Positions 7,306 to 58,214 of a stretch of DNA of 64,000 nucleotides are shown one piece after another. Position 1 is the first letter of the stretch, and each line of letters starts with the position of its first letter. Source of the DNA: an uncultured SAR86 cluster bacterium (GTDB lineage: Bacteria; Pseudomonadota; Gammaproteobacteria; Magnimaribacterales; D2472); NCBI GenBank assembly GCA_902511575.1, contig CABXFU010000002.1, forward strand, positions 89,444 through 153,443, written 5' to 3'. The notes under the pieces were generated by a model. The model was not told where the DNA came from, searched no databases, and saw only the letters and a program-made list of their open reading frames with translations. Made by a program: the position numbers and the translations under genes.

Positions 7306-7824
7306 TTACTCTCTGATTATATTCATTCCTTCGGTTCTTTTTTGTTGATTGGGATCGACTTCTAATTCTCTTTCATATACCTCAAATTCAAACCATTCAT
7401 TGAATTCTTTACTTCTATTTCGTTTCATATAATTCCAAACTCCCTTTCCAGCATCACTTTTCATCACACCAAGTCTTAAAGCATTTATTCTAGAGTTCAG
7501 ATGTGATTCATCTACAAAGCCTTCTTGGACCTTGTCATAAACATCAAAAAGATCTACAAGGCACATCATTACAAAATGGTTAATCCTCCACCTATCAGTA
7601 TGAGTTAAGTCATCAGCCGCCCAATCTTTTGCAAGAAATTCTGAAAACTCAGAATCTTTAGTTGTATTAAAAAAACGATCATATTGACGCTGTGTAAGAG
7701 AATGACCAAATTGAGCTTTAGTTATTTTATTTTGTTGATTGATTTGCATTCCAAGGTAGACAACAGAAATAACAACTCCCATTGCAGCTATAACTTGAAC
7801 AATAATAAGAATCAATTCAGTCAC
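7306..7824 (-). CDS. hypothetical membrane-anchored protein
   Basis: 172 aa with a single N-terminal TM helix (LILIIVQVIAAMGVVISVVYLG). No family recognised. It is tightly packed, 3 nt upstream of the aminotransferase gene. Confidence 0.45.
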   Translation of the reverse strand: MTELILIIVQVIAAMGVVISVVYLGMQINQQNKITKAQFGHSLTQRQYDRFFNTTKDSEFSEFLAKDWAADDLTHTDRWRINHFVMMCLVDLFDVYDKVQEGFVDESHLNSRINALRLGVMKSDAGKGVWNYMKRNRSKEFNEWFEFEVYERELEVDPNQQKRTEGMNIIRE

Positions 7825-12221: not shown

Positions 12222-14093
12222 ATGAAAATTATTAATCGCTCAGCTTCAACGAAGATAATTCAATGGTCTGCAAAAAACTCTTCAAATGATAATATTTCCG
12301 AGACAGTCCTTAGGATTAAAAATCTTGTTTTAAGTCAAGGTACATCTGCTTTTGATCAAATTAACAAAGAGTTAAATACTAAATCACCAAAATCTTTTAA
12401 AGTTAAGGGATCGGAAATATCAAAATCTGATCTATTAGTTTCTGATAAGTTAAAACAATCGATTCTTCAATCAGCAGCTAACATAAAAACTATTTGTGAA
12501 AATGATAAAAAAGGATTTATAGGGAATCCTGTAGAAACAACAAAAGGCATCAAAGTCTGGAAAGAATTCAGACCCATTGATTCAGTTGGTATCTATGTAC
12601 CAGGAGGTAGCGCTCCATTAATCTCATCGTTATTAATGCAAGTAATACCAGCTACAGTAGCTGGATGTAAAAATATTATTATTTGCACTCCTCCCAATAA
12701 AAATGGTTTGGTAGCACCTGAAATATTATGGATAGCAAAAATCTATGGCATAAAAAAAATATATAAAGTTGGAGGCGCTCAAGCAATTTTTGGCATGGCA
12801 TATGGAACTACAATTATCCCAAAAGTGAATAAAATATTTGGGCCAGGCAATGCATATGTTAATGAGGCAAAAAAACTCTCCTCTAACGATGTTGCGATAG
12901 ATCTTCCAGCGGGACCAAGTGAAGTAATGATAGTCACTAATGATCTTGAAAAAATTTCTATTGCAGCTGCTGATGCTTTATCTCAATTAGAACATGATCC
13001 AAATTCAAGAGCCTTCATAATTTCAAACAATCATGCTCTGTTAAAAAAGGTCAAAGCTGAGATTTTAAAACAAATGAGTACCTTAGCTAGGCAAAATGTC
13101 CTCACCCAAAGTATAAAAAATGTATTACTAATTAAGTCTAAATCTTTCAAAGATTCTATATGCTTAATCAATGAATGTGCTCCAGAGCACCTTATTTTAC
13201 TAGATGAAGATTATTCAAAATACCTAGTAGATATTAATAATGCAGGATCAATTTTTTGTGGGGCGTTAAGCCCAGAATCATTTGGTGACTATTCATCTGG
13301 TTCAAATCATGTATTACCAACTAATGGTCAAGCAAAAGTACACTCAGGTCTTAGTGTTAGTGATTTCGGGAAATATATAAGTGTTCAAACGGCATCTGCA
13401 GAAGGCTTCAACAATCTAAAGGATACCGTGCTAGAGATGGCTCAAGCAGAGACTTTGGATGCACATCAGCAATCGGTAAAAATACGAGAAGATATAGCAT
13501 TAAAAAAATCAGTATCTAGAAGCTATAGTGAAATCAGAAAAACAAATGAGACTAATATATTCATTAACTTAAATCTTGATGGCACAGGTAATTATAATAT
13601 TCAAACTGGTTTAAATTATTTAGACCATCTTTTAGAGCAATTTTCAAAACATGGCTCCATAGATTTAAATTTAACTTGTTTGGGTGATTTAGAGATAGAT
13701 GAGCATCATACTATTGAGGATATTGCGATTGCCTTAGGAGCAGCAATAAACAATGCTCTTGGAAGCAGAGTTGGCATAGCTCGATATGCATCAAGTGAAA
13801 TCCTGGTTATGGATGAGGTTAAGAGTATTGTGAGCATAGATTTAAGCTCTAGACGATATCTCAATTTTAAGTGTTCAAAGTTACGAGATTATGTTGGCGA
13901 CTTCCCAACAGAAATGTTTGAGCATTTTTTTATATCTTTAATTAATTCCATTGCAATGACATGTCATATCGATACAACTGGTAAAAATTCACATCATTTG
14001 CTTGAAGCTACATTCAAAACCTTTGCACGATGTTTGAAGTCAGCTGTGGTGATTGAATCATCGACATCGTCATCCACAAAAGGGATTTTATGA
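12222..14093 (+). CDS. hisD: fusion protein: histidinol dehydrogenase (N-terminal) + imidazoleglycerol-phosphate dehydratase (C-terminal)
   Basis: 623 aa. HisD motifs: GIYVPGGSAPLISSLLM, QLEHDPNS, APEHLIL, GDYSSGSNHVLPT. From about residue 434 (nt about 13521) IGPD motifs appear: IRKTNETNIFINLNLDG, LDHLLEQFSKHG, GDLEIDEHHTIEDIAIALG, GKNSHHLLEATFKTFARCL, STKGIL. The reading frame is continuous. Confidence 0.9.
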   Translation: MKIINRSASTKIIQWSAKNSSNDNISETVLRIKNLVLSQGTSAFDQINKELNTKSPKSFKVKGSEISKSDLLVSDKLKQSILQSAANIKTICENDKKGFIGNPVETTKGIKVWKEFRPIDSVGIYVPGGSAPLISSLLMQVIPATVAGCKNIIICTPPNKNGLVAPEILWIAKIYGIKKIYKVGGAQAIFGMAYGTTIIPKVNKIFGPGNAYVNEAKKLSSNDVAIDLPAGPSEVMIVTNDLEKISIAAADALSQLEHDPNSRAFIISNNHALLKKVKAEILKQMSTLARQNVLTQSIKNVLLIKSKSFKDSICLINECAPEHLILLDEDYSKYLVDINNAGSIFCGALSPESFGDYSSGSNHVLPTNGQAKVHSGLSVSDFGKYISVQTASAEGFNNLKDTVLEMAQAETLDAHQQSVKIREDIALKKSVSRSYSEIRKTNETNIFINLNLDGTGNYNIQTGLNYLDHLLEQFSKHGSIDLNLTCLGDLEIDEHHTIEDIAIALGAAINNALGSRVGIARYASSEILVMDEVKSIVSIDLSSRRYLNFKCSKLRDYVGDFPTEMFEHFFISLINSIAMTCHIDTTGKNSHHLLEATFKTFARCLKSAVVIESSTSSSTKGIL

Positions 14094-33369: not shown

Positions 33370-33424
33370 TGATATAATGTTTTGACTTATAATACTCGAT
33401 TAGTAGTTAAATTGGGTCTCTGAA

Positions 33425-35392
33425 ATCAATAAAACAAGAAAAATAATCGTAACAAATGCCCTTCCATACGCAAATGGTAATATCCATGTCGGCCATATTT
33501 TAGAGCATATTCAAACTGATATCTGGTCTCGTTTTATGAGGTTAATGGATCATGAGGTTTTGACCTTTTGTGCAGATGATGCGCATGGCGCACCTATTAT
33601 GATGAAGGCAGATGAATTGGGCATCGAACCAACAGCATTCATAGATGAAATTAATAAAAGCCACCAAGAATCATTAGCTAAATTTGGTATTGAATATACA
33701 AACTATTACTCAACACATTCCAAAGAAAATGAAGCCCTAGTTTCAGAAATTTACCTTGATGCTAAATCTTCAGGCTATATTTACAAAAAGGAAATTGAAC
33801 AATGCTTTGATGAAGAGAAGCAGATGTTCCTAGCTGACAGATATGTTGTTGGCGAATGTCCTAAATGTTCAGCAAAGAATCAGTATGGAGATGGGTGCGA
33901 AGAATGTGGAGCTACCTACTCTGCTACAGAGCTCATCAATCCTAAATCATCATTATCTGGTACCACGCCAATAACAAAAATTTCTGAACATATATTTTTT
34001 GACTTAGAAAAGGCGAAAGATGATCTGGTGAATTTCCTAGATAATTCATCAATACAAAAACCAATACTTGGAAAGTTATCAGAATGGCTTGATGGTGATT
34101 TAAAAAGCTGGGATATCTCAAGAGATGCTCCATACTTTGGCTTTCAAATACCTGATGAAACTGAAAAATATTTTTATGTTTGGGTTGATGCTCCTATTGG
34201 TTATATGGCATCAGCTGATAATTGGGCTAATAAAAACTCCCATTCACTAGCAAATTTATGGGGCAGAGAATCTGATTACGAAATACATCATTTTATTGGT
34301 AAAGATATTACATATTTTCATGGATTATTTTGGCCAGCTCTATTAATGAAATCAAAATATAAACTTCCAGATAGTATTCATGTGCATGGTTTTGTGACTG
34401 TCAATGGAGAAAAGATGTCTAAATCAAAAGGCACATTTATAACAGCTGATCAATTTGCTGATGCGTGTGATCCAGAATTATTGAGATATTATTTTGCAAG
34501 CAAATTAAACTCCAAAATTGAAGACTTGGATTTAAACCTTGAGGATTTAGCAAAAAAAGTTAACTCAGATTTAGTTGGTAAATTTTCAAATATTTTTAGC
34601 CGTTCAGCACCTTTCATTTCAAAAAATGATAACCGCCTTAGTGAAGCAGTTCATCAAGACCATTTATTACATTGCAATAAAAATATCGAAAAAATATTAC
34701 AACATTTTGAGAATAAGGAATTCTCTAAAGCAATCAAGTTAATCATGGAGATTGCTGATGATACTAATAAATATATTAATGAGTATGCTCCTTGGAAGCT
34801 AGATCAATCCGAAGCACTTACTGTTGCCACAACAGCTATTAATGTTTTTAAAGACTTATGCATCTTACTATCGCCCGTTACTCCAGAACTATGCAAGAAA
34901 ATGTTGTTAATGTTAAATATTGATAACCAAAATATAGAAAACCTCAAAATTGAATTAATTAATGTTGAAATAAATGAATTTGAACCTATTCTCTCAAGAG
35001 TCAAAGCATTAAATATCAAAGACTTTTACAAAAAGGATGAAAAAATGAAAGAAGAAGATAACAATATTATTCAAATAGATGACTTCATGAAAGTCGATCT
35101 AAGGGTTGCTAAGGTTGAAGAAGTTTCATACGTAGAAGGTGCAGATAAATTACTTGCTATCAAGTTAGACTTAGGTGATTTAGGGACAAAAAATGTATTT
35201 GCTGGAATTAAATCAGCATATGAACCTGCTGAATTAGAAGGCAAATTAGTTGTAATGGTTTACAACCTAGCTCCAAGAAAGATGAAATTTGGGATTTCTG
35301 AAGGTATGATTTTGGCTGCAAGTGATTCAGAGGGTGGTATTTTTGTATTGTCTCCTGATTCGGGGGCTCAACCAGGGCAAAAAATTAAATGA
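33425..35392 (+). CDS. metG: methionyl-tRNA synthetase with C-terminal tRNA-binding domain; start codon non-canonical or unresolved
   Basis: The ORF-track start (33536) omits conserved sequence. The in-frame upstream translation reads ...INKTRKIIVTNALPYANGNIHVGHILEHIQTDIWSRF and contains the HIGH motif. Also present are the Zn knuckle CPKC..CEEC, KMSKS, and a Trbp111-like C-terminus (VDLRVAKV). There is no ATG, GTG or TTG between the stop at 33404 and 33536; candidate starts are ATC 33425, ATA 33443 and ATC 33446. Confidence 0.85.
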   Translation: MNKTRKIIVTNALPYANGNIHVGHILEHIQTDIWSRFMRLMDHEVLTFCADDAHGAPIMMKADELGIEPTAFIDEINKSHQESLAKFGIEYTNYYSTHSKENEALVSEIYLDAKSSGYIYKKEIEQCFDEEKQMFLADRYVVGECPKCSAKNQYGDGCEECGATYSATELINPKSSLSGTTPITKISEHIFFDLEKAKDDLVNFLDNSSIQKPILGKLSEWLDGDLKSWDISRDAPYFGFQIPDETEKYFYVWVDAPIGYMASADNWANKNSHSLANLWGRESDYEIHHFIGKDITYFHGLFWPALLMKSKYKLPDSIHVHGFVTVNGEKMSKSKGTFITADQFADACDPELLRYYFASKLNSKIEDLDLNLEDLAKKVNSDLVGKFSNIFSRSAPFISKNDNRLSEAVHQDHLLHCNKNIEKILQHFENKEFSKAIKLIMEIADDTNKYINEYAPWKLDQSEALTVATTAINVFKDLCILLSPVTPELCKKMLLMLNIDNQNIENLKIELINVEINEFEPILSRVKALNIKDFYKKDEKMKEEDNNIIQIDDFMKVDLRVAKVEEVSYVEGADKLLAIKLDLGDLGTKNVFAGIKSAYEPAELEGKLVVMVYNLAPRKMKFGISEGMILAASDSEGGIFVLSPDSGAQPGQKIK

Positions 35393-45867: not shown

Positions 45868-46050
45868 ATGCTTGAAAATCTCTTTTCTGAGCTCAATGAC
45901 TTGCTATGGGGTCTTGGTATAGTTTCTTTTTCTATAGTTGGATTATTGATATTACCAAAAAAATTTTCATATAAACTCGGTCAGCATCCTTTAATTTTGG
46001 TGATTATGTTTTTTTCAATTCTATATTTAGTAATAAGAGTATTTAACTAA
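45868..46050 (+). CDS. possible small membrane protein (two TM helices)
   Basis: 60 aa, hydrophobic, 9 nt after NMO. No homology recognised; it may be spurious. Confidence 0.3.
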   Translation: MLENLFSELNDLLWGLGIVSFSIVGLLILPKKFSYKLGQHPLILVIMFFSILYLVIRVFN

Positions 46051-47348
46051 TTGCTTGAGTTGAAGTCAGACGAAAAGTCCTCGACTAAATTAATAAATGC
46101 TTTTACTCCATTAGATAAAGCAGAATCATCAACATAAAAGTACGGCGAATGATTTGTTGGACTATCTTCGTCACCCGGCGCATTGACTCCCAAGAAAAAG
46201 AATAAACCTGGAACTTGTTTCGCAAAAAATGAAAAATCCTCAGCGCCAGTCCTAGGAACTCTTGCCTCAAAAAAATCTCCATCAGCAGCTTCGCTTAGAG
46301 ATGAGGAATATTTATTAGCAAGCTCTTCGTCATTAACAGTTACTGGATAGCCCCCATATACCTGAAATTCTGCAACAGCCTTGGCGTGATGAGCAGCAGC
46401 TACATTTTCAGCAATAAGCTTAATCTCATCTCGTATTTGAGCAGCATAAGAGTCTTTAAATGTTCTAATAGTGCCTTCTAAGAATGCTGTTGAGGGTATG
46501 ATGTTATTCCTCGTTCCTGCTTTCATAATACCAACTGTGACCACTGCTTGGCTGTCTAGAAGATTTAACCTTCTGCTAACAATCGTCTGAAGAGTTGTTG
46601 CTATATCGGATGCTGCAATAATTGGATCTACGCCACTCCAGGGTCTTGAACCATGTGTCTGCTTGCCTTGTACGGTTATTCTGAAAGCTTCTGCTGAAGC
46701 CATAATTGGGCCAGGCTTTGTCCAAATTTGACCATTTTTAAAATTTGATACGTGCAATCCAAAGATGGCATCCGGCTTTTCAATCTCAAAAAGACCTTCT
46801 TTAAGCATTAGCTCTGCACCGCCCTCTTCTCCCTCCGGAGCACCTTCTTCAGCAGGCTGAAAAATTAGTAAGATATCACCATTTAATTTATCTGTATTTC
46901 TAGACAGGAAACTTGCAACTCCGAGCAATACTGCTATGTGAGCATCGTGACCACACGCATGCATAACTCCAACTTCATTTCCTTGATATATAGTTTTAAC
47001 TTTTGATGAAAATGGGAGATTGAGTTTTTCAGTAACCGGTAAACCATCAATATCAGCCCTAAGTGCAATTAACGGACCTGGGTTTTGACCTCTAATAAAC
47101 GCGGTGACCCCAGTGATGCCAAAGTCTGTATTTGGTTCAAGACCCATCTCAGTTAATGCCTCAACTATAGATTCTTGGGTCTTATATTCTCTGTTTGAGA
47201 GCTCTGGATACTGATGAAAATGATGTCTCCAATCAGTAACCTTCGTCATGACTCCTTGCAAGTCTCTATCCAATTGAGATTTTAAGTCATCTGCTTCAAT
47301 AGGACTTATAAGCACAAGCAATACAAAGAACGGAATTAAATTTTTCAT
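46047..47348 (-). CDS. secreted M20-family amidohydrolase (hippurate hydrolase / N-acyl-amino-acid amidohydrolase-like)
   Basis: 433 aa. Signal peptide MKNLIPFFVLLVLISPIEA. Motifs HQYPELSNRE, ALRADIDGLPV, MHACGHDAH, QPAEEG, GAEDFSFF. Confidence 0.8.
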   Translation of the reverse strand: MKNLIPFFVLLVLISPIEADDLKSQLDRDLQGVMTKVTDWRHHFHQYPELSNREYKTQESIVEALTEMGLEPNTDFGITGVTAFIRGQNPGPLIALRADIDGLPVTEKLNLPFSSKVKTIYQGNEVGVMHACGHDAHIAVLLGVASFLSRNTDKLNGDILLIFQPAEEGAPEGEEGGAELMLKEGLFEIEKPDAIFGLHVSNFKNGQIWTKPGPIMASAEAFRITVQGKQTHGSRPWSGVDPIIAASDIATTLQTIVSRRLNLLDSQAVVTVGIMKAGTRNNIIPSTAFLEGTIRTFKDSYAAQIRDEIKLIAENVAAAHHAKAVAEFQVYGGYPVTVNDEELANKYSSSLSEAADGDFFEARVPRTGAEDFSFFAKQVPGLFFFLGVNAPGDEDSPTNHSPYFYVDDSALSNGVKAFINLVEDFSSDFNSSN

Positions 47349-47351
47349 CGT

Positions 47352-48230
47352 CTATCCTCTTTTAAAAATATTTATAAAAATGGCTGGGGTTGAATCCATA
47401 TATTCTTTGAAATCAGATCGTCTTTCTAAAGAGCGTTTGTCCATCATTGAGACTGATGCAATGGCTATTAAAGCATACATAATTAAAGTGCCTACCAAAA
47501 GCCATGCAAAGTTAAAATTAGCTGCCAATGCAAAGACAAAAAGACTAAACCAAAATAATATTTCTCCAAAATAATTTGGATGACGCGAGTAATACCATAG
47601 ACCTGATTTCATGGTTTTAGGCTCAGAAAGGTTCCTCCTAAAATTAAACATTTGCTGATCAGAAATAATTTGAATTATGACTGCTGCTATAGCTAAAAAA
47701 GCAGCCAATATATCTAAATTATTTAATTCATTTCCTGGATAAGCAAGAGCATAAATCATTGGGAGTAATGCCATATAAACACATAGCGTTGGAATAAGAT
47801 GTATGGAACCAAAATCGACTATAAAGTATTGTAATTTGTTATTTGTTTTTCCTTTCATCATGATGTAACGCCAATCTTCATGTGAAAAGCCTTCCCACGA
47901 TCTCATCCAGTTATAAGTTAATCGGATGGCCCAAAACAATAAACATGCATGCATTAAAAATGCTCGCTGAACGTTTCCTGCAGCGGCAATATCTGCCCAA
48001 CACATAATTGTTAAGACAACAGGAATAACTGACCAAAAAGCATCATACCAACTAGAATTTTTGAAAATAACACTTAAAAAATATATAAAAATTGTAGCCT
48101 CAATATGACAGACGAGCACTTTGAAAATTAATGATGACTCAGAGAAGAGGTTCCAAGTAAACAGCATAGAATAAATACATGCTATGTAACCAAATAAAAT
48201 AACCGATAGATGTAAAAGTTTAGTTTTCAT
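47352..48230 (-). CDS. DUF1295 membrane protein (steroid 5-alpha-reductase / ICMT-like fold)
   Basis: 292 aa polytopic protein. SWYDAFWSV, EDWRY, and GLWYYSRHPNYFGEILFW are DUF1295 hallmarks. Its start overlaps the fbiC stop by 4 bp. Confidence 0.75.
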   Translation of the reverse strand: MKTKLLHLSVILFGYIACIYSMLFTWNLFSESSLIFKVLVCHIEATIFIYFLSVIFKNSSWYDAFWSVIPVVLTIMCWADIAAAGNVQRAFLMHACLLFWAIRLTYNWMRSWEGFSHEDWRYIMMKGKTNNKLQYFIVDFGSIHLIPTLCVYMALLPMIYALAYPGNELNNLDILAAFLAIAAVIIQIISDQQMFNFRRNLSEPKTMKSGLWYYSRHPNYFGEILFWFSLFVFALAANFNFAWLLVGTLIMYALIAIASVSMMDKRSLERRSDFKEYMDSTPAIFINIFKRG

Positions 48231-50641
48231 GTGATATTAATTAATTTTTTGGGTTGATGATAATCATTGTTAATTGGGATAAGAGGTATAGACTGCAAAC
48301 TAATTAAGTCTCGAAGATTACTATTTAATGAATCATACAATGTATTTCTTTGCTGTAAATTTAATCCTAGCTCATTGACGATTCCTTCAACTTCCTCCAA
48401 TCGGAGTTCCTGACCAAAAGAAGCACCGGCAGATCTTGTAATAGATTCATTCATCAATACTCCTCCGATATCATTTATCCCAGAAGATAATAGAAATTTT
48501 AGCCCAGGAAGACCCATTTTAACCCAAGAACCTTGAATATTATTGATCTGGCCTTGGAACAAAATCCTTGCAACAGAATGAACCAAAATTGTTTCTTTAA
48601 AAGTAGGCCCAGGTCTAGCTTGGCCGCGCCTATATATTGGAGCCTCATCTGCAACAAAGGGCAAAGGAACAAATTCTGTTATGCCATTAGTTCTCTTTTG
48701 AAGGTTTAAAAGCTCTAATAAATGATGAGCAACATGATCAGTTCTCTCTATATGACCAAACATCATCGTTGATGTTGTGGGCAATCCCACAGAATGAGCA
48801 GTTTCAATAATTTCGATCCATTGCTTGGTGGTAAGTTTATCAGGGCAAATAATTTCTCTTATATCGTCATGCAAAATTTCTGCAGCCGTTCCTGGGAGTG
48901 AATTCAAGCCTGCTTTTTTTAACTCTAGAAGAAACTCTTTAGCAGAGATATTTAAAGTTTTTCTACCGTGATCAATTTCTAAAGGAGAAAAAGCATGAAT
49001 ATGAATTGATGGTGAGCATGATCTAATTGCTCTTACTATCTCAATATAGGTTTCACCAGAATATTTTGGATGTATTCCACCTTGTAAACAGACTTCTGTA
49101 GCACCTCTTTCAACCGCTTCTTTTGTTCTTCGAATAATCTCTTCATGTGAAATATTATATGGCTTGCCTCTAAGATCATCGTGTCCCCTGCCTTTTGAAA
49201 AAGCGCAAAAATTGCATTTGAAAGAGCAGATATTTGTATAGTTAATATTCCTGTTAACAACAAAAGTAATATCTGATCCATGCATTTGTGATTTAACATC
49301 ATTGGCATAATCAGTAACATATTTAAAGTCATTATCTGACGTCTCAAGGAGTTGCTGTATATTCTCAATAGATGGATTGTTTTCAACTTTATTGATCGAT
49401 TGACGAATACTAGAATTAAATACAGCCTCAGGATAAGAGGGTATTTTAGTGCTAATTCCTGATCTCCAGAAATCAGACCGAATGAGAGACTGAGAATCAG
49501 TTATTTGAAGAAGTTGAGAGGATATTCTAGGTGATGAGAAGCTATCAAGATCATTAAAATACTTGGGATATAAAGTTGCTCTTGGTTTTAAAGATTGGTT
49601 CGAAGTTGATGTTATTTTATTTAACTTTTCTATTTCGGGCCAAGGTGCCTCTGGGTTTACATAATCCTTGGTGACTGGTGATATTCCGCCAAAATCATTT
49701 ATTCCAGACTGAGATAGCTGTTTTATATTATCTGAATTTAAATTAGGCGGGACCTGCAGACTAATATCACCAGGCAAGATCAATCTGGCCATTGCAATTG
49801 TCCACATAAGCTCATCGAATGATGGCTCACTAGCATTTGCCATCAATGTATTGGGCTTTGCTCTAAAATTCTGCACTATAACCTCTTGGATATGATTGTA
49901 TGTGAGATGCAATTCAGATATTTTGTGTAATGACTCTAAGCGCTCTAACCTTGTTTCACCTATTCCTATTAATATTCCAGTGGTAAATGGAACCTTTTGT
50001 TTTCCAGCTTCCTCTAATGTCTTCATTCTGAAAATAGGATCTTTGTCTGGAGATCCGTAATGTGGTTGGCCTTTTTCAGTCAACCGAGTAGATAAAGACT
50101 CAACCATCAATCCCATAGAGCCACTTAGGGGTTTAAGTTTGGTAATTTCATCAGCGGTTAAGCAACCAGGATTTAAATGAGGTACTAAGGATGTCTCATT
50201 TAATACAGCTTCAGCACATGCAGCCAAATAATCATTTGTTGTCTTATATCCATTTTCTGACAACCACTCTCTTGCAGCTCTGTATCTCAATTCTGGCTTA
50301 TCACCCAGTGTAAATAAGGCTTCATAACAACCGTGAGCCTCGCCCTCTTTAGCAATTGAAATAACTTGGTCAATTGATAAATAAGGTGATTCAACTTTTT
50401 TAGGAGTTTGAGCAAAGGTACAGTAATGACAAACATCTCGACATAAAAATGTTAAAGGGATAAACACTTTGGGAGAATAGGTTAATAAGTTTTTGTAATG
50501 TATTGTTTTCTTTTCGTAGGAAGCTTTTATCAAAGCATCAGATAAACAAATATTAGCTAAAGAACTTAGATCAGAAAATTCAATTAATCCAGAAGCAATT
50601 AATCGCTTTAAGGTTTGGTTTGACTGTTCTTGAATTTTCAA
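48227..50641 (-). CDS. fbiC: FO synthase (7,8-didemethyl-8-hydroxy-5-deazariboflavin synthase), fused CofG+CofH
   Basis: 804 aa with two radical-SAM cores: CRDVCHYCTF in the N-terminal half and CSFKCNFCAF in the C-terminal half. The length matches the fused FbiC form. Confidence 0.9.
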   Translation of the reverse strand: MKIQEQSNQTLKRLIASGLIEFSDLSSLANICLSDALIKASYEKKTIHYKNLLTYSPKVFIPLTFLCRDVCHYCTFAQTPKKVESPYLSIDQVISIAKEGEAHGCYEALFTLGDKPELRYRAAREWLSENGYKTTNDYLAACAEAVLNETSLVPHLNPGCLTADEITKLKPLSGSMGLMVESLSTRLTEKGQPHYGSPDKDPIFRMKTLEEAGKQKVPFTTGILIGIGETRLERLESLHKISELHLTYNHIQEVIVQNFRAKPNTLMANASEPSFDELMWTIAMARLILPGDISLQVPPNLNSDNIKQLSQSGINDFGGISPVTKDYVNPEAPWPEIEKLNKITSTSNQSLKPRATLYPKYFNDLDSFSSPRISSQLLQITDSQSLIRSDFWRSGISTKIPSYPEAVFNSSIRQSINKVENNPSIENIQQLLETSDNDFKYVTDYANDVKSQMHGSDITFVVNRNINYTNICSFKCNFCAFSKGRGHDDLRGKPYNISHEEIIRRTKEAVERGATEVCLQGGIHPKYSGETYIEIVRAIRSCSPSIHIHAFSPLEIDHGRKTLNISAKEFLLELKKAGLNSLPGTAAEILHDDIREIICPDKLTTKQWIEIIETAHSVGLPTTSTMMFGHIERTDHVAHHLLELLNLQKRTNGITEFVPLPFVADEAPIYRRGQARPGPTFKETILVHSVARILFQGQINNIQGSWVKMGLPGLKFLLSSGINDIGGVLMNESITRSAGASFGQELRLEEVEGIVNELGLNLQQRNTLYDSLNSNLRDLISLQSIPLIPINNDYHQPKKLINIT

Positions 50642-50645
50642 CGAT

Positions 50646-51221
50646 CTAACTGTTAATGTATTTAATTAGTTTGAAGTAATCTTCCTCGGAGTCAAGGTCA
50701 TCTTGAAGGCTTTCAATCGAAATATCTTTAAAATTTAATCCATTATTTTTAAATTCGTCCATAAAAAGATTGTAACTATTGAATCCAAATTTTAGATCAA
50801 AGGATATTGCTGAATTAAACATCAAGCAGTTTGTTCCCTGGCTCGAAAGATCAGAAATAATACTTACTTTTTTCATGTCAAATGAATGAGCTAACTCATG
50901 AAGATCTCTTTCATTTATTTTAGGAAGATCTGCATGCATGATTAAAACAGCATCATTTGTTGTTTGTGCATAAATGGCTTCATTCAAAGCATCATTTAAT
51001 GATGAGTTTGTAAAATATGAAGTTGAATAGTCTAAATGTAAGTTACTGTCATTAGTAACAACTGTTATTGAGTTGCAGATTTTAGAATTATGCAAAGTAT
51101 CAATAGTTTTTTTTGCCATTGAGGCAGCTAAAATTTCCCTTTCAGATGAGCTAATAATATTTGCTAGTCGATTCTTTGAAGAGGAAAACTTTTTGATCGG
51201 TATAAATGCAGAGACATTCAT
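50646..51221 (-). CDS. cofC: CofC/FbiD-family guanylyltransferase (F420 side-chain activation)
   Basis: 191 aa. AFIPIKKFSSSKNRL, LIMHADLPKINERDL, and its position between cofD and fbiC. Confidence 0.75.
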   Translation of the reverse strand: MNVSAFIPIKKFSSSKNRLANIISSSEREILAASMAKKTIDTLHNSKICNSITVVTNDSNLHLDYSTSYFTNSSLNDALNEAIYAQTTNDAVLIMHADLPKINERDLHELAHSFDMKKVSIISDLSSQGTNCLMFNSAISFDLKFGFNSYNLFMDEFKNNGLNFKDISIESLQDDLDSEEDYFKLIKYINS

Positions 51222-52151
51222 TTATTTTGATTCGAGCTCATCAATGATTGTCTTAGCTAGTGCATTTTTTTTATCAAGACTGTTCATAATTAAATCACCA
51301 ATATGTACCTCATATCCTAGCGCATTTAATTCATTGGACTCAGTTACATCAGATGAATCTATAAATATTCTTTTAGAATAATTCTTATAAAATTTAGCGA
51401 TAGTTTTTACGCTTACTTCTTGATCGAGCTCTTGCATCATTTTTGCTGTTGGCCCTTTTAAAGACTGAGCATTAACAATTGGGCTGATAGTTGTAACTTT
51501 ATGTGAAAAATCATGTAAATAATTTTTTAGTTTGGGTAATTGGAGCATTGGATCAATGCTTACATAAGGATTTGATGGACATATGATGATTTCGTCATAA
51601 ATTGATAAATCAAGATCTTTGTTAAAATCAGCCTTATCAAGCCCCTTGAAAACAAAATCAGTTACAGGTGGCTCGCATTTCAATTTAACAAAATATTCTT
51701 GAAATGAAAGCAACCTATTTTTTGTTTGTATATAAGTTTCAACAGATTGATTGCTCATTGGAAAAATATATTTCGGCAGATTGAATGAATCACATAAATT
51801 ATGTGTTGCTTCTGTAAGAGATTGACCGGAATTAATTAAATATGTTCTTTGAATATGGGTTGCTAAATCTTTGTCTCCAAGCTGAAACCATGTTTCTCCC
51901 TTCATAGCAGATAACGCTGAAAGCATATTCCATGATTCATTTTTTCTACCCCAGCCCTTTGATATGTCTGATTCACCAGCGAGGGTATACATCACCGTAT
52001 CAAGATCGGGACAGATTCTTAAACCAAGATGTGTAAAATCATCTCCAGTATTGACGGCAATAGTTAAATTGTCTGGATCGATTGAATTTTTAAATCCTAG
52101 GGCAAGCTTGGCTCCACCAACACCTCCACACAATAATAAATAATTTTTCAT
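51222..52151 (-). CDS. cofD: 2-phospho-L-lactate transferase (CofD/FbiA)
   Basis: 309 aa. LLLCGGVGGAKLA, DLDTVMYTLAG, GDKDLATH, and CPSNPYVSIDPML. Confidence 0.85.
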   Translation of the reverse strand: MKNYLLLCGGVGGAKLALGFKNSIDPDNLTIAVNTGDDFTHLGLRICPDLDTVMYTLAGESDISKGWGRKNESWNMLSALSAMKGETWFQLGDKDLATHIQRTYLINSGQSLTEATHNLCDSFNLPKYIFPMSNQSVETYIQTKNRLLSFQEYFVKLKCEPPVTDFVFKGLDKADFNKDLDLSIYDEIIICPSNPYVSIDPMLQLPKLKNYLHDFSHKVTTISPIVNAQSLKGPTAKMMQELDQEVSVKTIAKFYKNYSKRIFIDSSDVTESNELNALGYEVHIGDLIMNSLDKKNALAKTIIDELESK

Positions 52152-52912
52152 CTAAACAAGTCCTCTTCTTCACTTCTAATTAAAGATCGAGAGTCGCTAA
52201 TATTATTTTGTTTAAATTTATATCCCTTGATTAACACAACAGGTTTTTTTTGTGCAGCCTGCCCCATCAATAATGATGAAGCTGCTGCTAATTCGTCAGC
52301 AATACCTATTTGAGTTACCTTTAACTCATTATCATAAAGATCTTTTTTCCCTCGTTCATCTAAAAGACATTCAATGTTATGGCTCCCTATCGTAAAACCT
52401 ACTATTCCATTTCTAAAAGGTCTACCCATGGTATCGGTAATAATTACAGATATATTTTTTTGAAAATGTTGAGATATAGATTCTGAAATCTTCTTTGCAG
52501 ATTCATCAGGCTTTTTTGGCAGCAACAAGACAGTGTCTTTAAGTTGATCGATGTTAGATCTATCAATTCCTCCATTTGCATGAATAAATCCTAATTTATG
52601 CTCAACAATTAGCACCCCCATTCTATAGCGGACCACCTTTTGTGATTCATTGAGTATTGCTTGAATAAACTTTGGATCTTTATCAATTTTTGTAGATAAG
52701 CTTATTGCCTCCTCAGAGGGGTTCAATTGTGAGATGTCCAGATATCTATTTTCTGATTTAGAAATAATTTTTTGAGCTATTGCAATGACATCTCCATCAT
52801 CAATTGATATTGATTCAGAGGTTATAGCATTGATAATTTCTTTAGATACATCTTGTCCTGGCTGGATAAGCGGAAGTGTCTCTAAAGCAATGAGGTTGAT
52901 GGAACTGATAAT
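52148..52912 (-). CDS. cofE: F420-0:gamma-glutamyl ligase (CofE, single-domain); start codon non-canonical or unresolved
   Basis: The ORF track starts at TTG 52726. The same frame is open up to 52939 and encodes SINLIALETLPLIQPGQDVSKEIINAITSESISIDDGDVIAIAQKIISKSENRYLDISQ, the conserved CofE N-terminus. There is no ATG, GTG or TTG in that stretch; candidate starts are ATT 52912 and ATC 52909, 10 nt after the fno stop and preceded by the purine-rich AAGAGAAG. Confidence 0.8.
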   Translation of the reverse strand: MISSINLIALETLPLIQPGQDVSKEIINAITSESISIDDGDVIAIAQKIISKSENRYLDISQLNPSEEAISLSTKIDKDPKFIQAILNESQKVVRYRMGVLIVEHKLGFIHANGGIDRSNIDQLKDTVLLLPKKPDESAKKISESISQHFQKNISVIITDTMGRPFRNGIVGFTIGSHNIECLLDERGKKDLYDNELKVTQIGIADELAAASSLLMGQAAQKKPVVLIKGYKFKQNNISDSRSLIRSEEEDLFR

Positions 52913-52922
52913 ACTTCTCTTG

Positions 52923-53555
52923 TTAGTGGCCTGTAATCTTTATGCCTGAATGTGCGAGTGAATGTTTTTTATTGATCGCAATTAATATTGACGTTAGAGC
53001 TTCAGCAGCTACTGAATTGCATAATGGTCCAGCATGCCAGCCTGTCAGACCAGCATCAGCTGCTAACTCAATTACGGTATTTCTAGCATCAAGAAAATCT
53101 CCAGCAACCAAAACATCACAATCAATCTCAGCATCGGTCTGTAGCAATTCAGCTGAAATATTTTGAAAAGCAGATACTACAGTAGTTTGTTCACCCAAAA
53201 TTGATTGGGCATTTAATGCCGCAGAACCTATTTCAGGCAATTGAACTCTCATAACCTTTGGAGGCATAAGTGGAACAGTTGCATCAATCATTATCTTATT
53301 TTGCAAACCATCATCAATGCTAATTAAAGTTGATTCTTGATGTGCAAATGGCACAGTTAAGCATGCAAGTTCACAGATTTTAGCAGCATCAATATTCAAC
53401 ATTCCAGACGAACTTTCCAAGCCTAATTGCACTGCAATTTCTTGAGCCTTAGGTAAATCACGGCTGCCAATAAGCACGTCATGTCCAGCCTTAATCCATC
53501 TTGAAGCCAAACCTTTGCCTAAGGATCCTGTCCCTCCTAGAATAGCTATTTTCAT
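52923..53555 (-). CDS. npdG: F420-dependent NADP+ oxidoreductase (Fno/NpdG)
   Basis: 210 aa. MKIAILGGTGSLGKGLASRWIKAGHDVLIGSR and overall similarity to NpdG. An AGGAG Shine-Dalgarno sequence lies 8 nt upstream. It is the first gene of the F420 run. Confidence 0.8.
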   Translation of the reverse strand: MKIAILGGTGSLGKGLASRWIKAGHDVLIGSRDLPKAQEIAVQLGLESSSGMLNIDAAKICELACLTVPFAHQESTLISIDDGLQNKIMIDATVPLMPPKVMRVQLPEIGSAALNAQSILGEQTTVVSAFQNISAELLQTDAEIDCDVLVAGDFLDARNTVIELAADAGLTGWHAGPLCNSVAAEALTSILIAINKKHSLAHSGIKITGH

Positions 53556-53697
53556 TCAATATCTCCTAATTAATATTTAATAAATATTATACAAATTCAC
53601 AAGCCAATCAATGGGTATCTTCAAGAATAAATTTGTAAATATAAATTTAGCTTACATGTTCTATAATTGATTAGATCAGATCAGCAAAAATACTAAA

Positions 53698-54464: not shown

Positions 54465-55991
54465 TTAGCCAAAAAGTTTTCTTACCAATCTGTTGCCCCA
54501 AAATATTTTTAAAGCCCCTTTTAGTTGCTCAAATGATTTATCTGTATAAGGGTAAGCTGATGCTGACTTTTTACCTATAATAATCGGCATTGGATGAGCA
54601 TATGCTAACAAGCCCTCTTTTCCATTCACTACGCCTAGCCCACTTTCTTTAACTCCACCAAATGGAACTTCATTAACTCCATAGCTCATTGCCATATCAT
54701 TAACAGAACAAGCTCCTGTTTCGATTGATTTAGCCAGTCTTTGACCCTTTTTTAAATCCTTGGTCCAAACATTTCCATTCAATCCATAATGAGATTGATT
54801 GGCTAGCATTAATGCTTCCTCTTCTGATTGAACTTTCATAATTGAGATAATGGGCCCAAAGGTTTCATCTTTCATGATCTTCATCTCGTGAGTAACTTCC
54901 ACAAGAACGGTTGGTTCAAAATATAAGCCTTCAAAATTTGGATTTCTTTTCCCTCCAACCAATACTTTTGCACCTTTAGCAACAGCATCATTAACATGAT
55001 CCTCAATAATATTGACTTGCTTATCCCAAAAGGTAGGACCAACATCACCCTTGCAATCATTTGATTGAATGAGTGACTGAGTTATGGAAACAGCCTCAGC
55101 AACAAACTCATCATAGACATCATCCATAACATAAATTCTTTCGGTACCACAGCAATACTGACCTGCATTCATGCATGAGCCTACAACTGCTCCACTTGCA
55201 GCATCTTTAATATCAGCATCAGAACAAACAATCATGGCATCTTTGCCGCCAAGCTCTAAGCTGAAGGGAATTAGCATTTCACCGCACTTTGCTGCAATCT
55301 TCTTTCCTGTTGCAACACTGCCTGTGAAAGAAACCTTATCTGGAGCTTGATCAATTAATGCGGCTCCCGTTTCACCATCTCCAATGACAGTCTGAACTAG
55401 ATGTTGAGGGGCTTCTGCTAGTGCAAAAATCTCCTGAACCAATGCCCCAGACATAGGAGTAACTTCAGATGGCTTTACCACGACGCTATTTCCACAAAGA
55501 ATAGCTTGAATTACTGGGTTAATGGATAAAATGAATGGACCATTCCAAGGAGTAATGACTGCTACCACACCTCTTGGCTTATATATAATTATTGTTTTTT
55601 TAAGGAACTGCATAGGACCATGCATCTTAATTTTTTTGTCTGCAAGCCACTTTTGAGCTCTTTTAGCATAAAAGACCAAAGAATCTACAGCTGAAAATAC
55701 TTCCATGGCCATAGCTTCTTGCTCTGGTTTGCCGGTCTCTCTCATGACAACATCCATAATTTTATCTTGCTGCTGAATTACTACGTCAGCAACCCTATGC
55801 ATTAATTCAACTCTTTCTTTTAAAGTTGTTTTCTTCCACTCACTTTGCGCAACTTTAGCTTGAGTCATTATCGTTGCAATCTCATCCTCTGATGTGCATT
55901 CATACGTATCGATATGAGAAAGATCAACCGGGCTTTTTAAAGTTAATAGTTTTTTGCCGCTTTCAGAATGAGAGATAGAAAAAATAGCCAT
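54465..55991 (-). CDS. NAD(P)+-dependent aldehyde dehydrogenase
   Basis: 508 aa. TPWNGPF, FTGSVATGKKIA, ELGGKDA, and catalytic Cys in GQYCCGTERIYV. Confidence 0.85.
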   Translation of the reverse strand: MAIFSISHSESGKKLLTLKSPVDLSHIDTYECTSEDEIATIMTQAKVAQSEWKKTTLKERVELMHRVADVVIQQQDKIMDVVMRETGKPEQEAMAMEVFSAVDSLVFYAKRAQKWLADKKIKMHGPMQFLKKTIIIYKPRGVVAVITPWNGPFILSINPVIQAILCGNSVVVKPSEVTPMSGALVQEIFALAEAPQHLVQTVIGDGETGAALIDQAPDKVSFTGSVATGKKIAAKCGEMLIPFSLELGGKDAMIVCSDADIKDAASGAVVGSCMNAGQYCCGTERIYVMDDVYDEFVAEAVSITQSLIQSNDCKGDVGPTFWDKQVNIIEDHVNDAVAKGAKVLVGGKRNPNFEGLYFEPTVLVEVTHEMKIMKDETFGPIISIMKVQSEEEALMLANQSHYGLNGNVWTKDLKKGQRLAKSIETGACSVNDMAMSYGVNEVPFGGVKESGLGVVNGKEGLLAYAHPMPIIIGKKSASAYPYTDKSFEQLKGALKIFWGNRLVRKLFG

Positions 55992-55993
55992 TT

Positions 55994-57064
55994 TTATAAC
56001 TCCTTGAGTTTAGCTTCAAGCATGGGCGTTACATGATTATTGATATGCGCATTCATTCCCATAGGCATAATCTCGTAATGCTCTAGTTTTCTCACAACCT
56101 TAACCATAATAACGGTAAATTTATATAGAGCTAAAATATAATAATAATCAAAATCGTCTGCACTAAATCCAGTTAAAGCTTCCCATTTAGCAATGGTTGC
56201 AACAGGACCTGGAAAACCGCTTAATCTCTCAACATGCACCCCTTTTGAATTACAGTCATCAATAGCTATTCCCCAAGCAAGATCCATACAGGGATCTCCA
56301 AGTGCTGCCATCTCCCAATCTAAAACAGCTGAAACTTGCCCATCTGGATCATACATAACATTTGCACACCTACAATCTCCCCAAAGAATAGAAGATTGAG
56401 TAGGTTGAGGTTTATTAGCTTTGAGCCATTCACGCGCTTGATCCGCAACTGGATGAGCCTCACCATCCATGGCCCAGTCATGAAAATTAAAGTAATAATT
56501 TAGCTCTTGATCAAGATAATCTTCTGCAAGGCTTGGTCTGTTGAGGAATTCAAAATCTCCATTCGAGATATCTACTTGATGAATTTTAGCCATTTGCTCA
56601 ACCCAGCCCCACCAAATTTTCTCTCTAACGTCTTCAGAGGAGTCAGCAACCCATCCCTCTTGATGAAATGGAGGATTATCAGAAGGAGCATCACCGCTAG
56701 CCATTTCCATAACATAAAAGGAGGTACCAAAAACCTCATCACTAGATTCATACCAAAGAACATTAGGCACCTTAATATCATGTTCAGATAATTTTTGCAT
56801 AATCAAAAATTGTTTATGAATGTCATAGTCAGGAAATACAAAAAACCCTTCAGGATAAAAACGAAGAACCATTCCAGTCTTAATCTTTGCACCTTTTAAT
56901 TCATATGAGACATTGAAACTTAGCGTTTCGTTAGAAAAACCTGTATTTTCAGGCCCTCCTAATAACTTAACATTTAGGTCAGTAGCTCCATCTAATTGTG
57001 TTTTGAGCCAAGAACTAAAAATAATTTTAGTTTGGTCTAAATCTCTCTCTTGTGGCTTTGGCAT
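55994..57064 (-). CDS. phosphotransferase-family (APH/ChoK-like) kinase
   Basis: 356 aa. Brenner-like ILWGDCRCANVMYD and a downstream DWEMAALGDP motif, typical of the APH-family proteins often found in lipid and xenobiotic clusters. Confidence 0.7.
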   Translation of the reverse strand: MPKPQERDLDQTKIIFSSWLKTQLDGATDLNVKLLGGPENTGFSNETLSFNVSYELKGAKIKTGMVLRFYPEGFFVFPDYDIHKQFLIMQKLSEHDIKVPNVLWYESSDEVFGTSFYVMEMASGDAPSDNPPFHQEGWVADSSEDVREKIWWGWVEQMAKIHQVDISNGDFEFLNRPSLAEDYLDQELNYYFNFHDWAMDGEAHPVADQAREWLKANKPQPTQSSILWGDCRCANVMYDPDGQVSAVLDWEMAALGDPCMDLAWGIAIDDCNSKGVHVERLSGFPGPVATIAKWEALTGFSADDFDYYYILALYKFTVIMVKVVRKLEHYEIMPMGMNAHINNHVTPMLEAKLKEL

Positions 57065-57131: not shown

Positions 57132-58214
57132 ATGGCTGATTTGTTCAAAGAAAAATGGGATGTATTTTGCGAAAACCTCAAAGATGTTGGATCGATAATT
57201 GAATCAGAATCTTCCCTCAGCGAAACTGACCAAGCTGAAGGTTACAGGTACTTGCTACGTTTAATGCGGTTGTCATTAGAGATGAATTTAGAGCATTCAA
57301 ACCCATCCACGCCATCTTTCTATAACCTTTCTCATGAAACTGCAAAAATAGGTGCGGATAATCCAGACAATATTTATTTAAATGCAAATATAGTCGGAGG
57401 ACAGTCTTATGAAGTCTATGGAAATGTTGGTGAATCAGACTACTTAAGTTTTGGTCTTAAAGAAAATAGGTACAGCAAAGATGGCACCATGATATCTTTA
57501 GGAGAAATTGATTTGAGAGATATGATGGTTGATAGTGCAGGGAATTTTATTTTATATCTTGGCGGGGACACTAATTCTAAAAATTTTTTGCCGCTTCCTG
57601 AAAATGCAAATATGTTGATAGTTCGCCAGACCTACAAAAATAGAATTTCTCAAACGCATGCAAAAATTAATATTAAAACTGTTAGCTCAACAGCTGCTCC
57701 TGAACTTTTAACACCCTCAATACTTGAGACTCAACTCAACCAGTCACTTGCATTCGTTAAAGGAACTGCATCAACCTTTATAAAGTGGGTGCATGAATTT
57801 AAGACCAATCACAAGAATCAATTACCCTTAGGTGATCAAGCTTTTTTTCAAGCAGCCGGCGGTGATCCCAAAATTTGTTACCTTCATGGATATTATGACT
57901 TTAGTAAAGATGAATATATGAAAATCACTACAGATATACCTGAATGCGAGTATTGGAATTTTCAGTTGGAAAATTATTGGATGGAATCTCTTGATTATCG
58001 GCATTTCCCTATACATATCAATGAATCATCCGCCATTGTAAATGAAGATAAAACTTTAACTATCAATGTCAGCCATCATTGCATTAATAAAAAAAATAAT
58101 CTTATAACTGAAGGTCGCAATAATGGAGCTATGCTCCTTCGATGGATAGGCGCAAGCGCTCATCCAATCCCAAAAGTAGAAATAAAAAAACTTAATTCTA
58201 AGGGGGCTAGCTAA
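57132..58214 (+). CDS. DUF1214-like protein, function unknown
   Basis: 360 aa. The AEGYRYLLRLMRLSLE and NPDNIYLNA patterns recall DUF1214/DUF1254 proteins; this family assignment is from memory. Its stop overlaps the next gene's ATG (TAATG). Confidence 0.5.
   Translation: MADLFKEKWDVFCENLKDVGSIIESESSLSETDQAEGYRYLLRLMRLSLEMNLEHSNPSTPSFYNLSHETAKIGADNPDNIYLNANIVGGQSYEVYGNVGESDYLSFGLKENRYSKDGTMISLGEIDLRDMMVDSAGNFILYLGGDTNSKNFLPLPENANMLIVRQTYKNRISQTHAKINIKTVSSTAAPELLTPSILETQLNQSLAFVKGTASTFIKWVHEFKTNHKNQLPLGDQAFFQAAGGDPKICYLHGYYDFSKDEYMKITTDIPECEYWNFQLENYWMESLDYRHFPIHINESSAIVNEDKTLTINVSHHCINKKNNLITEGRNNGAMLLRWIGASAHPIPKVEIKKLNSKGAS

Follow-up and report, generated by a model that had tools for sequence, protein, structure and literature searches.

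A 64-kb stretch of contig from an uncultured SAR86 cluster bacterium (64,000 nucleotides, hereafter the window) carries a block of seven co-directional genes on its minus strand, between positions 46047 and 53555. Five of these genes match enzymes for the biosynthesis and reduction of coenzyme F420. The family and junction results below refer to this block. The first gene, fno (npdG, 52923–53555), encodes an F420:NADP+ oxidoreductase of 210 aa (TIGR01915, PF03807). It is followed by cofE (52148–52912), coding for a single-domain F420-0:γ-glutamyl ligase of about 253–254 aa that starts at ATT 52912 or ATC 52909 (TIGR01916), and by cofD/fbiA (51222–52151, 309 aa, TIGR01819), coding for the enzyme that transfers a phospho-acid onto the deazaflavin FO. 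Next come the guanylyltransferase gene cofC/fbiD (50646–51221, 191 aa, TIGR03552) and fbiC (48227–50641, TTG start), which encodes a fused CofG/CofH FO synthase of 804 aa (TIGR03550 and TIGR03551). The last two genes encode a polytopic membrane protein of the ICMT/steroid-5-alpha-reductase superfamily (DUF1295, 47352–48230, 292 aa, PF06966) and an M20D-type amidohydrolase with an N-terminal signal peptide (M20, 46047–47348, 433 aa, TIGR01891). From fno to M20, the junctions measure +10, −4, 0, +4, −4, and +3 nt. The same values had been given in the original prediction, which was made from the sequence alone and overlooked that the +10 junction between fno and cofE depends on a non-canonical start; this value is reproduced only with cofE starting at ATT 52912. 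The arrangement is real and far from chance.

Family membership was judged by bit scores against curated NCBIfam/TIGRFAM cut-offs. Fno scores 183.3 bits against TIGR01915 (cut-off 149.8), and its solved relatives are led by Fno from T. fusca (5N2I, 5e-34), with the A. fulgidus protein also recovered (1JAX, 1e-28). CofE scores 264.1 bits (cut-off 180.65), with residues 6–254 covering model positions 2–244, and aligns with A. fulgidus CofE (2PHN, 4e-48) across the same residues. CofD reaches 264.7 bits (cut-off 257.45), with M. mazei CofD (3C3D, 5e-49) and M. smegmatis FbiA (6UVX, 6e-48) as solved relatives, and CofC reaches 111 bits (cut-off 105). FbiC passes both half-models, CofG (TIGR03550, 496 vs 213) and CofH (TIGR03551, 504.8 vs 374), and falls marginally below the cut-off of the full-length CofGH model (NF006687, 1006.3 vs 1018). 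The Pfam domains in gene order are F420_oxidored, F420_ligase, CofD, CofC, two Radical_SAM with CofH_C, DUF1295, and Peptidase_M20 with M20_dimer. For Fno, CofE, CofD, and CofC, the nearest solved structures belong to characterized F420 enzymes. Thus, the five-gene F420 assignment stands, since each gene scores above curated cut-offs. This includes cofC, cofD, and cofE, for which a failure of the models had been named beforehand as grounds for rejection.

Two structural claims of the original prediction were also confirmed. The predicted pair of CxxxCxxC radical-SAM cores in the fused FO synthase lies at residues 67 (CRDVCHYC) and 472 (CSFKCNFC). CofE is indeed of the short type: its 254 aa contain one F420_ligase domain, a nitroreductase domain is missing, and NF009810, the FbiB model, is matched only over positions 12–243 of 449, so that the C-terminal nitroreductase-fold half is absent.

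Expression signals and the start of cofE

The reading frame of cofE contains no ATG, GTG, or TTG for 71 codons past the in-frame stop. The first canonical in-frame start, TTG 52726, lies 62 codons inside the conserved domain, and an ordinary start is equally absent from 33 related loci and from a further lineage, L139. Both TIGR01916 and the structure 2PHN align from residue 6 of CofE, and the start-less codons account for 62 residues at the N-terminus of the ligase fold. The domain is matched at full length only if translation begins at ATT or ATC. One of these triplets occupies codon 1 or 2 in all 33 related loci with a readable junction, and also in L139. In the window, it is preceded by AAGAGAAG (52914–52921, minus strand), a weak Shine-Dalgarno-like motif with an AGAGA core that recurs before the ATT or ATC in every sampled lineage except L139.

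We considered a frameshift or stop-codon readthrough that would join fno to cofE. The distance from the fno stop to cofE is 7, 8, 10, 11, 12, 15, or 18 nt depending on the lineage, and consequently the frame of cofE relative to fno varies as well. This variation rules out a conserved frameshift or readthrough and therefore leaves the ATT/ATC start for cofE. The 62 start-less codons have a ratio of nonsynonymous to synonymous substitution rates (dN/dS) of 0.05–0.13, the same as the remainder of the gene. This segment is under constraint and is therefore translated. Judged from the sequence, the conserved AUU or AUC behind the AGAGA motif must be what starts cofE.

Public records do not agree on this gene. 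Its product is called at 157, 192, 197, 233, 269, or 277 aa, and the record for the window itself gives 192 aa. A second gene in the window has a similar problem. In metG (open reading frame (ORF) 33536–35392, plus strand), the first ATG comes only after the codons for the HIGH motif (TNALPYANGNIHVGH; 33404–33535), and no ATG, GTG, or TTG follows the preceding stop, which implies a putative start at ATC, ATA, or ATT. With 2 of 60 genes affected, non-canonical starts thus seem to characterize this genome as a whole and not F420 biosynthesis in particular, and pipelines that allow only ATG, GTG, and TTG miscall cofE and metG in SAR86 genomes.

The 142-nt intergenic region between fno and a divergent short-chain dehydrogenase/reductase (SDR) gene contains a perfect −10 hexamer, TATAAT (53586–53591, minus strand), which is the likely operon promoter. 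This hexamer was read off the sequence itself and was not listed by a consensus promoter scan. A Shine-Dalgarno sequence, AGGAGA (53562–53567, minus strand), lies 6 nt before the fno ATG. An internal promoter candidate for DUF1295 and M20 (TTTACA-16-TATGAT, in the 3′ end of fbiC) is conserved only in the closest relatives and was rejected. Because this element is not conserved, DUF1295 and M20 may be co-transcribed with the F420 genes. No Rfam element or riboswitch matched at gathering thresholds, and no terminator hairpin was predicted downstream of M20. A conserved 60-aa small membrane ORF (45868–46050, plus strand), convergent and downstream of the NMO gene, overlaps the M20 stop by 4 nt and bounds the co-directional run at its 3′ side; it has orthologues in L087 and L128. 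Several features hint at an operon: the seven genes point the same way, their junctions are tight or overlap, one TATAAT lies upstream, and no internal promoter or terminator is conserved.

Maintenance of the block and its two distal genes

The closest matches to FbiC are encoded in SAR86 genomes, namely the single-cell genome AG-447-M16 (91% identity) and FRAM18_bin297 (70%). Beyond these two, relatives from Dehalococcoidia, Nitrosopumilaceae, Myxococcales, and Burkholderiales share at most about 45% identity. Public entries for identical proteins are likewise labeled SAR86. A metagenome scan with DUF1295 as the query returned 58 marine loci, which were compared for synteny together with L001, L002, and L139. 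Every contig long enough, more than 50 in number, has the same order: APH, ALDH, SDR (opposite strand), fno, cofE, cofD, cofC, fbiC, DUF1295, M20, NMO (opposite strand), and KstD, where APH denotes a kinase-family gene and ALDH an aldehyde dehydrogenase gene. Whole-block synteny persists down to 54% DUF1295 identity and in L139. The seven genes are under purifying selection, with pairwise dN/dS values of 0.04–0.17. The F420 genes (0.06–0.17) are under looser yet clear constraint compared with the flanks (0.015–0.06), and cofC is the fastest-evolving gene of the block, with 38–55% identity where NMO retains 80–95%. The F420 reading frames are intact in all lineages but one, an assembly of 0.57x coverage (L140). 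The split fbiC, cofE, and ALDH genes in L140 are assembly errors rather than pseudogenes and warn against inferring decay from such data. With these results, we can uphold the earlier claims that the genes are maintained and that the host is a streamlined gammaproteobacterium (SAR86, about 96% coding density).

In pairs with L002 and L095, the synonymous divergence (dS) of the block from fno to fbiC is 0.17–0.52 vs 0.8–1.9 for the flanks, which suggests recombination or a sweep within SAR86 populations.

The original prediction had treated DUF1295 and M20 as a functional extension of the F420 operon. The evidence gave this claim no support. Tight spacing is the norm in this genome: 24 of the 32 other co-directional pairs in the window are separated by no more than 10 nt (median 1.5 nt). 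Synteny is uninformative about the linkage of DUF1295 and M20 to the pathway because the unrelated flanking genes (APH, ALDH, SDR, NMO, and KstD) are equally conserved.

M20 belongs to the amidohydrolase family TIGR01891 (324.9 bits vs 153.75), contains the dimerization domain PF07687, and falls below the cut-off of the CpsA equivalog model (353.6 vs 500). Its best solved relative is YxeP (1YSJ, 2e-65), and ILL2 and an N-acyl-glutamine aminoacylase (6SLF) are also recovered. The N-terminus resembles a signal peptide, and across 10 lineages its features are kept while its sequence varies. Since this signal peptide is conserved and F420 synthesis is cytoplasmic, M20 is probably a periplasmic enzyme outside the F420 pathway. 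M20 also has its own recombination history. There are two allele classes (about 82% vs at least 92% identity) in the same backgrounds, where fbiC and DUF1295 are 91–93% and NMO 95–97% identical; where fbiC and DUF1295 show 91–93%, M20 alleles share 81–85%. The dS of M20 is about 2.0 vs 0.2–0.8 for the neighboring genes (e.g., L087 6781–8079 and L095 10883–12175). Distinct M20 alleles in near-identical backgrounds place a recombination breakpoint between DUF1295 and M20. The gap between M20 and NMO is itself variable and can hold a 116-aa cupin-like ORF (L087 8094–8444) or a 203-aa membrane protein (L128 12188–12799).

DUF1295 matches PF06966 (146.6 bits vs 20.4, 1e-42), contains at least six hydrophobic segments, as expected of a polytopic membrane protein, and carries the invariant motif WxxSRHPNYxGE. 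A Foldseek search with its AlphaFold2 model (pLDDT 70.6) ranked ICMT first (5VG9, E 0.29) and PbSRD5A fourth (7C83, E 0.97). Neither match is significant, and the fold search does not separate reductase from methyltransferase chemistry. Beyond the syntenic block, the nearest relatives of DUF1295 adjoin a gene for a cytochrome P450, for a CitMHS transporter, or for PsiE, or else unrelated genes, and none has an F420 gene less than 8 kb away. The closest of them, on other marine contigs, lie directly downstream of a cytochrome P450 gene (L143 1663–3901 and L142 238–1944), an adjacency that may point to a role of this subfamily in lipid or sterol-type chemistry. Conversely, none of 78 fbiC- or cofH-like loci outside SAR86 has a DUF1295 or M20 gene within 10 kb. 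In the literature, DUF1295 proteins appear in rhodopsin gene neighborhoods and among singlet-oxygen-induced genes, not with F420. DUF1295 is probably not part of the F420 pathway, and both genes are probably just neighbors of the F420 genes.

Side-chain precursor and F420 users

A study of the CofC from Mycetohabitans (PMC8764529) identified Ser162 as diagnostic for tolerance of, or preference for, 3-phosphoglycerate (3-PG), with contributions from Met91 and Cys95. The M91L and C95L mutations lower 3-PG use, and the counterpart of Ser162 in FbiD from M. tuberculosis (Mtb) is Gly163 (PMC8764529). We read the corresponding positions from a HMMER alignment to PDB 7P97 and from an alignment of 11 SAR86 orthologues. 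The equivalents of M91/C95/H145/S162 are L/L/(Q, K, S, or T)/G, with L/L/Q/G in the window copy. Gly in place of the 3-PG-type Ser is invariant in the 11 SAR86 lineages, as are Thr and Ser at the substrate-binding positions equivalent to T147 and S165. Among solved relatives, M. mazei CofC (2I5E, 4e-8) ranks above Mycetohabitans CofC (7P97, 4e-4) and Mtb FbiD (6BWG, 9e-4). A route to 3PG-F420 is thus disfavored, and the substrate of CofC would be 2-phospho-L-lactate (2-PL) or phosphoenolpyruvate (PEP). The sequence does not decide between these two, and even assays of the enzyme do not discriminate between 2-PL and PEP as substrates (PMC8764529). The original prediction had held that the side-chain precursor could not be told from sequence. 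This view stands for 2-PL vs PEP and is contradicted for 3-PG by the diagnostic residues.

Use of PEP would require a dehydro-F420-0 reductase. Pfam and NCBIfam scans of the window found no reductase of the FbiB-C or FbiE type. In L001, the one nitroreductase-fold gene nearby, at a distance of 6.5 kb, was considered as an FbiE candidate and rejected. It encodes a RutE-type malonic semialdehyde reductase (NF003768, 270.6/152) with no match to an FbiB C-terminal model. For the alternative precursor, the genes upstream of the operon offer a formal parallel. An APH-family kinase (55994–57064, minus strand) and an aldehyde dehydrogenase (54465–55991, minus strand) are joined by a 2-nt junction, and the opposite-strand SDR separates this pair from fno. 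The ALDH is closest to succinate-semialdehyde-type models and scores 297 against a cut-off of 650 for archaeal lactaldehyde dehydrogenase. To equate the pair with CofB and CofA is speculation that the family scores do not support.

We also confirmed the earlier statement that, apart from Fno, the window holds no known F420-dependent family. The Pfam scan covered the 60 ORFs that were kept as genes out of those of at least 100 aa, and no member of the luciferase-like, FDOR/PNPOx, F420H2 quinone reductase, or nitroreductase families turned up. The neighborhood instead contains KstD-like, KshA-like Rieske, SnoaL, SDR, ALDH, APH, and NMO genes and looks like one for lipid or steroid-type catabolism. 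Two conserved ORFs match no Pfam or NCBIfam family (7306–7824, minus strand, 172 aa; 57132–58214, plus strand, 360 aa); the latter is syntenic in L001 and L002, where it lies beside a sulfotransferase gene. Elsewhere in the window, a single 623-aa ORF (12222–14093, plus strand) fuses histidinol dehydrogenase (HisD) with imidazoleglycerol-phosphate dehydratase (IGPD).

Proposed function and relation to known F420 systems

We think it probable that SAR86 has maintained this locus vertically as a coenzyme F420 operon and that DUF1295 and M20 are envelope proteins of separate function. In this operon, FbiC would produce FO, and CofC would activate a C3 phospho-acid (2-PL or PEP, not 3-PG) with GTP. 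CofD would move the activated phospho-acid onto FO, the single-domain CofE would append γ-glutamates, and Fno, encoded by the first gene, would equilibrate F420 with NADPH. Transcription would probably begin from the TATAAT upstream of fno, and fno would be translated from its strong Shine-Dalgarno sequence and ATG. Translation of cofE would begin at the AUU or AUC 7–18 nt past the fno stop. It is probably low and coupled to fno because this start stands behind a weak AGAGA motif. The membrane protein DUF1295 and the exported M20, encoded on the same strand and possibly co-transcribed, would serve a separate envelope function.

Several points weigh against this interpretation. CofC and CofD clear their cut-offs only narrowly. 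Besides Fno, the 64-kb window encodes no F420-using enzyme, and neither a dehydro-F420-0 reductase nor a source of 2-PL was identified. The weak non-canonical start could leave the output of CofE very low. The coding sequence of DUF1295 overlaps fbiC by ATGA, and the two genes are never separated in any SAR86 contig. Finally, searches with NMO homologues revealed no SAR86 "empty site" that lacks the F420 genes and against which the linkage could be tested. A first search via NMO saturated at no less than 94% identity, and a second one, via the orthologue from L131, reached L139, which still carries the entire block.

The overlap and the missing reductase could also be read as signs of one seven-gene unit, in which DUF1295 is a dehydro-F420-0 reductase or a membrane-bound consumer of F420H2 and the periplasmic M20 trims or salvages the γ-glutamyl tails of external F420. 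The DUF1295 superfamily does include NADPH-dependent C=C reductases, homologues of DUF1295 match the Steroid_dh family (PF02544), and relatives of M20 hydrolyze amides of the N-acyl-Glu/Gln type. The ATGA overlap, the +3 nt gap to M20, an adjacency held in every SAR86 contig, the absence of a conserved internal promoter, and a window without FbiB-C/FbiE-type genes all fit this explanation. We nevertheless consider it unlikely, given that tight junctions are normal here and unrelated flanks are just as syntenic, that neither the nearest outside-block relatives of DUF1295 nor any of the 78 other fbiC/cofH-like loci show the association, and that M20 alleles recombine independently. The fold search is ambiguous between reductase and methyltransferase, and a soluble anionic substrate would be ill-matched to an intramembrane enzyme. 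More speculative, and quite improbable in our judgment, is the idea that conserved neighbors supply the step apparently missing in bacteria with a single-domain CofE. In its leading version, DUF1295 would act as a new membrane-bound NAD(P)H-dependent C=C reductase that replaces FbiB-C/FbiE in the conversion of dehydro-F420-0 to F420-0; in a weaker version, the APH kinase (55994–57064) as lactate kinase CofB and the ALDH (54465–55991) as CofA would make 2-PL.

The need for a reductase would vanish if the cluster made 3PG-F420 as in Mycetohabitans rhizoxinica. The short CofE, the lack of a nitroreductase partner, the proteobacterial host, and the absence of known F420-dependent enzymes nearby match the pattern reported for that organism. 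This explanation is very improbable in view of the invariant Gly at the S162 position, the Leu residues at the M91 and C95 positions, and a CofC that is nearer to the archaeal 2-PL-type 2I5E than to 7P97. Furthermore, SAR86 encodes Fno, which M. rhizoxinica does not. Most improbable of all is a scenario in which only FO matters, for instance in the antenna of a photolyase or as a chromophore for export, while cofC, cofD, and cofE decay and cofE is a truncated pseudogene. The missing canonical start, the disparate public lengths (157–277 aa, 192 aa in the window record), and the faster evolution of the F420 genes relative to the flanks could be taken as signs of decay. Against this stand dN/dS values of 0.06–0.17 for the three genes and 0.05–0.13 for the N-terminal 62 codons of cofE, reading frames intact in all lineages save the 0.57x-coverage assembly, the retention of fno as first gene, and the conserved ATT/ATC and AGAGA elements.

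The F420 pathway itself is already known, and public annotation pipelines name these proteins correctly, with the exception of the truncated cofE. The conserved non-canonical start of cofE and a 2-PL/PEP step left open without FbiB-C are modest curiosities. The weight of the finding is ecological and comes from the abundance of the host. SAR86 ranks with the most abundant heterotrophs of surface seawater, and its genomes measure about 1.2 Mb or more (1.19 Mb for L001, assembled as one contig). A complete F420 pathway under selection, together with Fno, makes it probable that SAR86 core metabolism includes a low-potential deazaflavin hydride carrier, and SAR86 would be a large marine source of FO and F420. 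In the literature searchable here, we found no report that links SAR86 to F420, deazaflavins, or cof/fbi genes. A review from 2021 on the distribution of F420 is silent on both Gammaproteobacteria and SAR86 (PMC8498797). The SAR86 genes would extend the distribution of F420 to planktonic Gammaproteobacteria, beyond the coverage of that review. They also provide a natural bacterial case, useful for the 2-PL vs PEP question, in which CofC and CofE are archaeal-like and an FbiB-C domain is missing.

Compared with known systems, the SAR86 pathway resembles that of archaea (M. mazei CofC 2I5E and CofD 3C3D; A. fulgidus CofE 2PHN and Fno 1JAX) in its single-domain enzymes without an FbiB-type C-terminal domain, and the best solved relatives of its CofC and CofE are archaeal. 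In contrast to the separate CofG and CofH of archaea, its FO synthase is a fused FbiC, and its genes stand in one fno-headed operon of an aerobic marine gammaproteobacterium. With the mycobacterial and actinobacterial pathway (FbiC, FbiD, FbiA, and FbiB; PEP route via dehydro-F420-0), it shares the fused FbiC, a CofD that matches M. smegmatis FbiA 6UVX as well as it matches archaeal CofD, and an Fno whose best relative is the actinobacterial 5N2I. Unlike that pathway, it has a CofE without a nitroreductase domain and no stand-alone FbiE in the window. The 3PG-F420 cluster of Mycetohabitans (Paraburkholderia) rhizoxinica is similar in its proteobacterial host, short CofE, lack of an encoded reductase step, and lack of known F420-dependent enzymes nearby. 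It differs in that SAR86 CofC lacks the diagnostic Ser and has L/L at the M91/C95 positions, and in that SAR86 encodes Fno and no adjacent ABC exporter. The F420 clusters of Alphaproteobacteria (Oligotropha and Paracoccus), described by Ney et al. 2017 as summarized in PMC8498797, likewise belong to aerobic Proteobacteria and use Fno as the F420 reducer; SAR86 differs as a gammaproteobacterium with a streamlined planktonic genome. Fno as the only reducer also matches predicted producers reported among Betaproteobacteria and Tectomicrobia. The predicted SAR86 enzyme set is thus a mosaic: FbiC is fused as in Actinobacteria and Proteobacteria, CofC and the single-domain CofE are archaeal-like, and the sole reducer is Fno.

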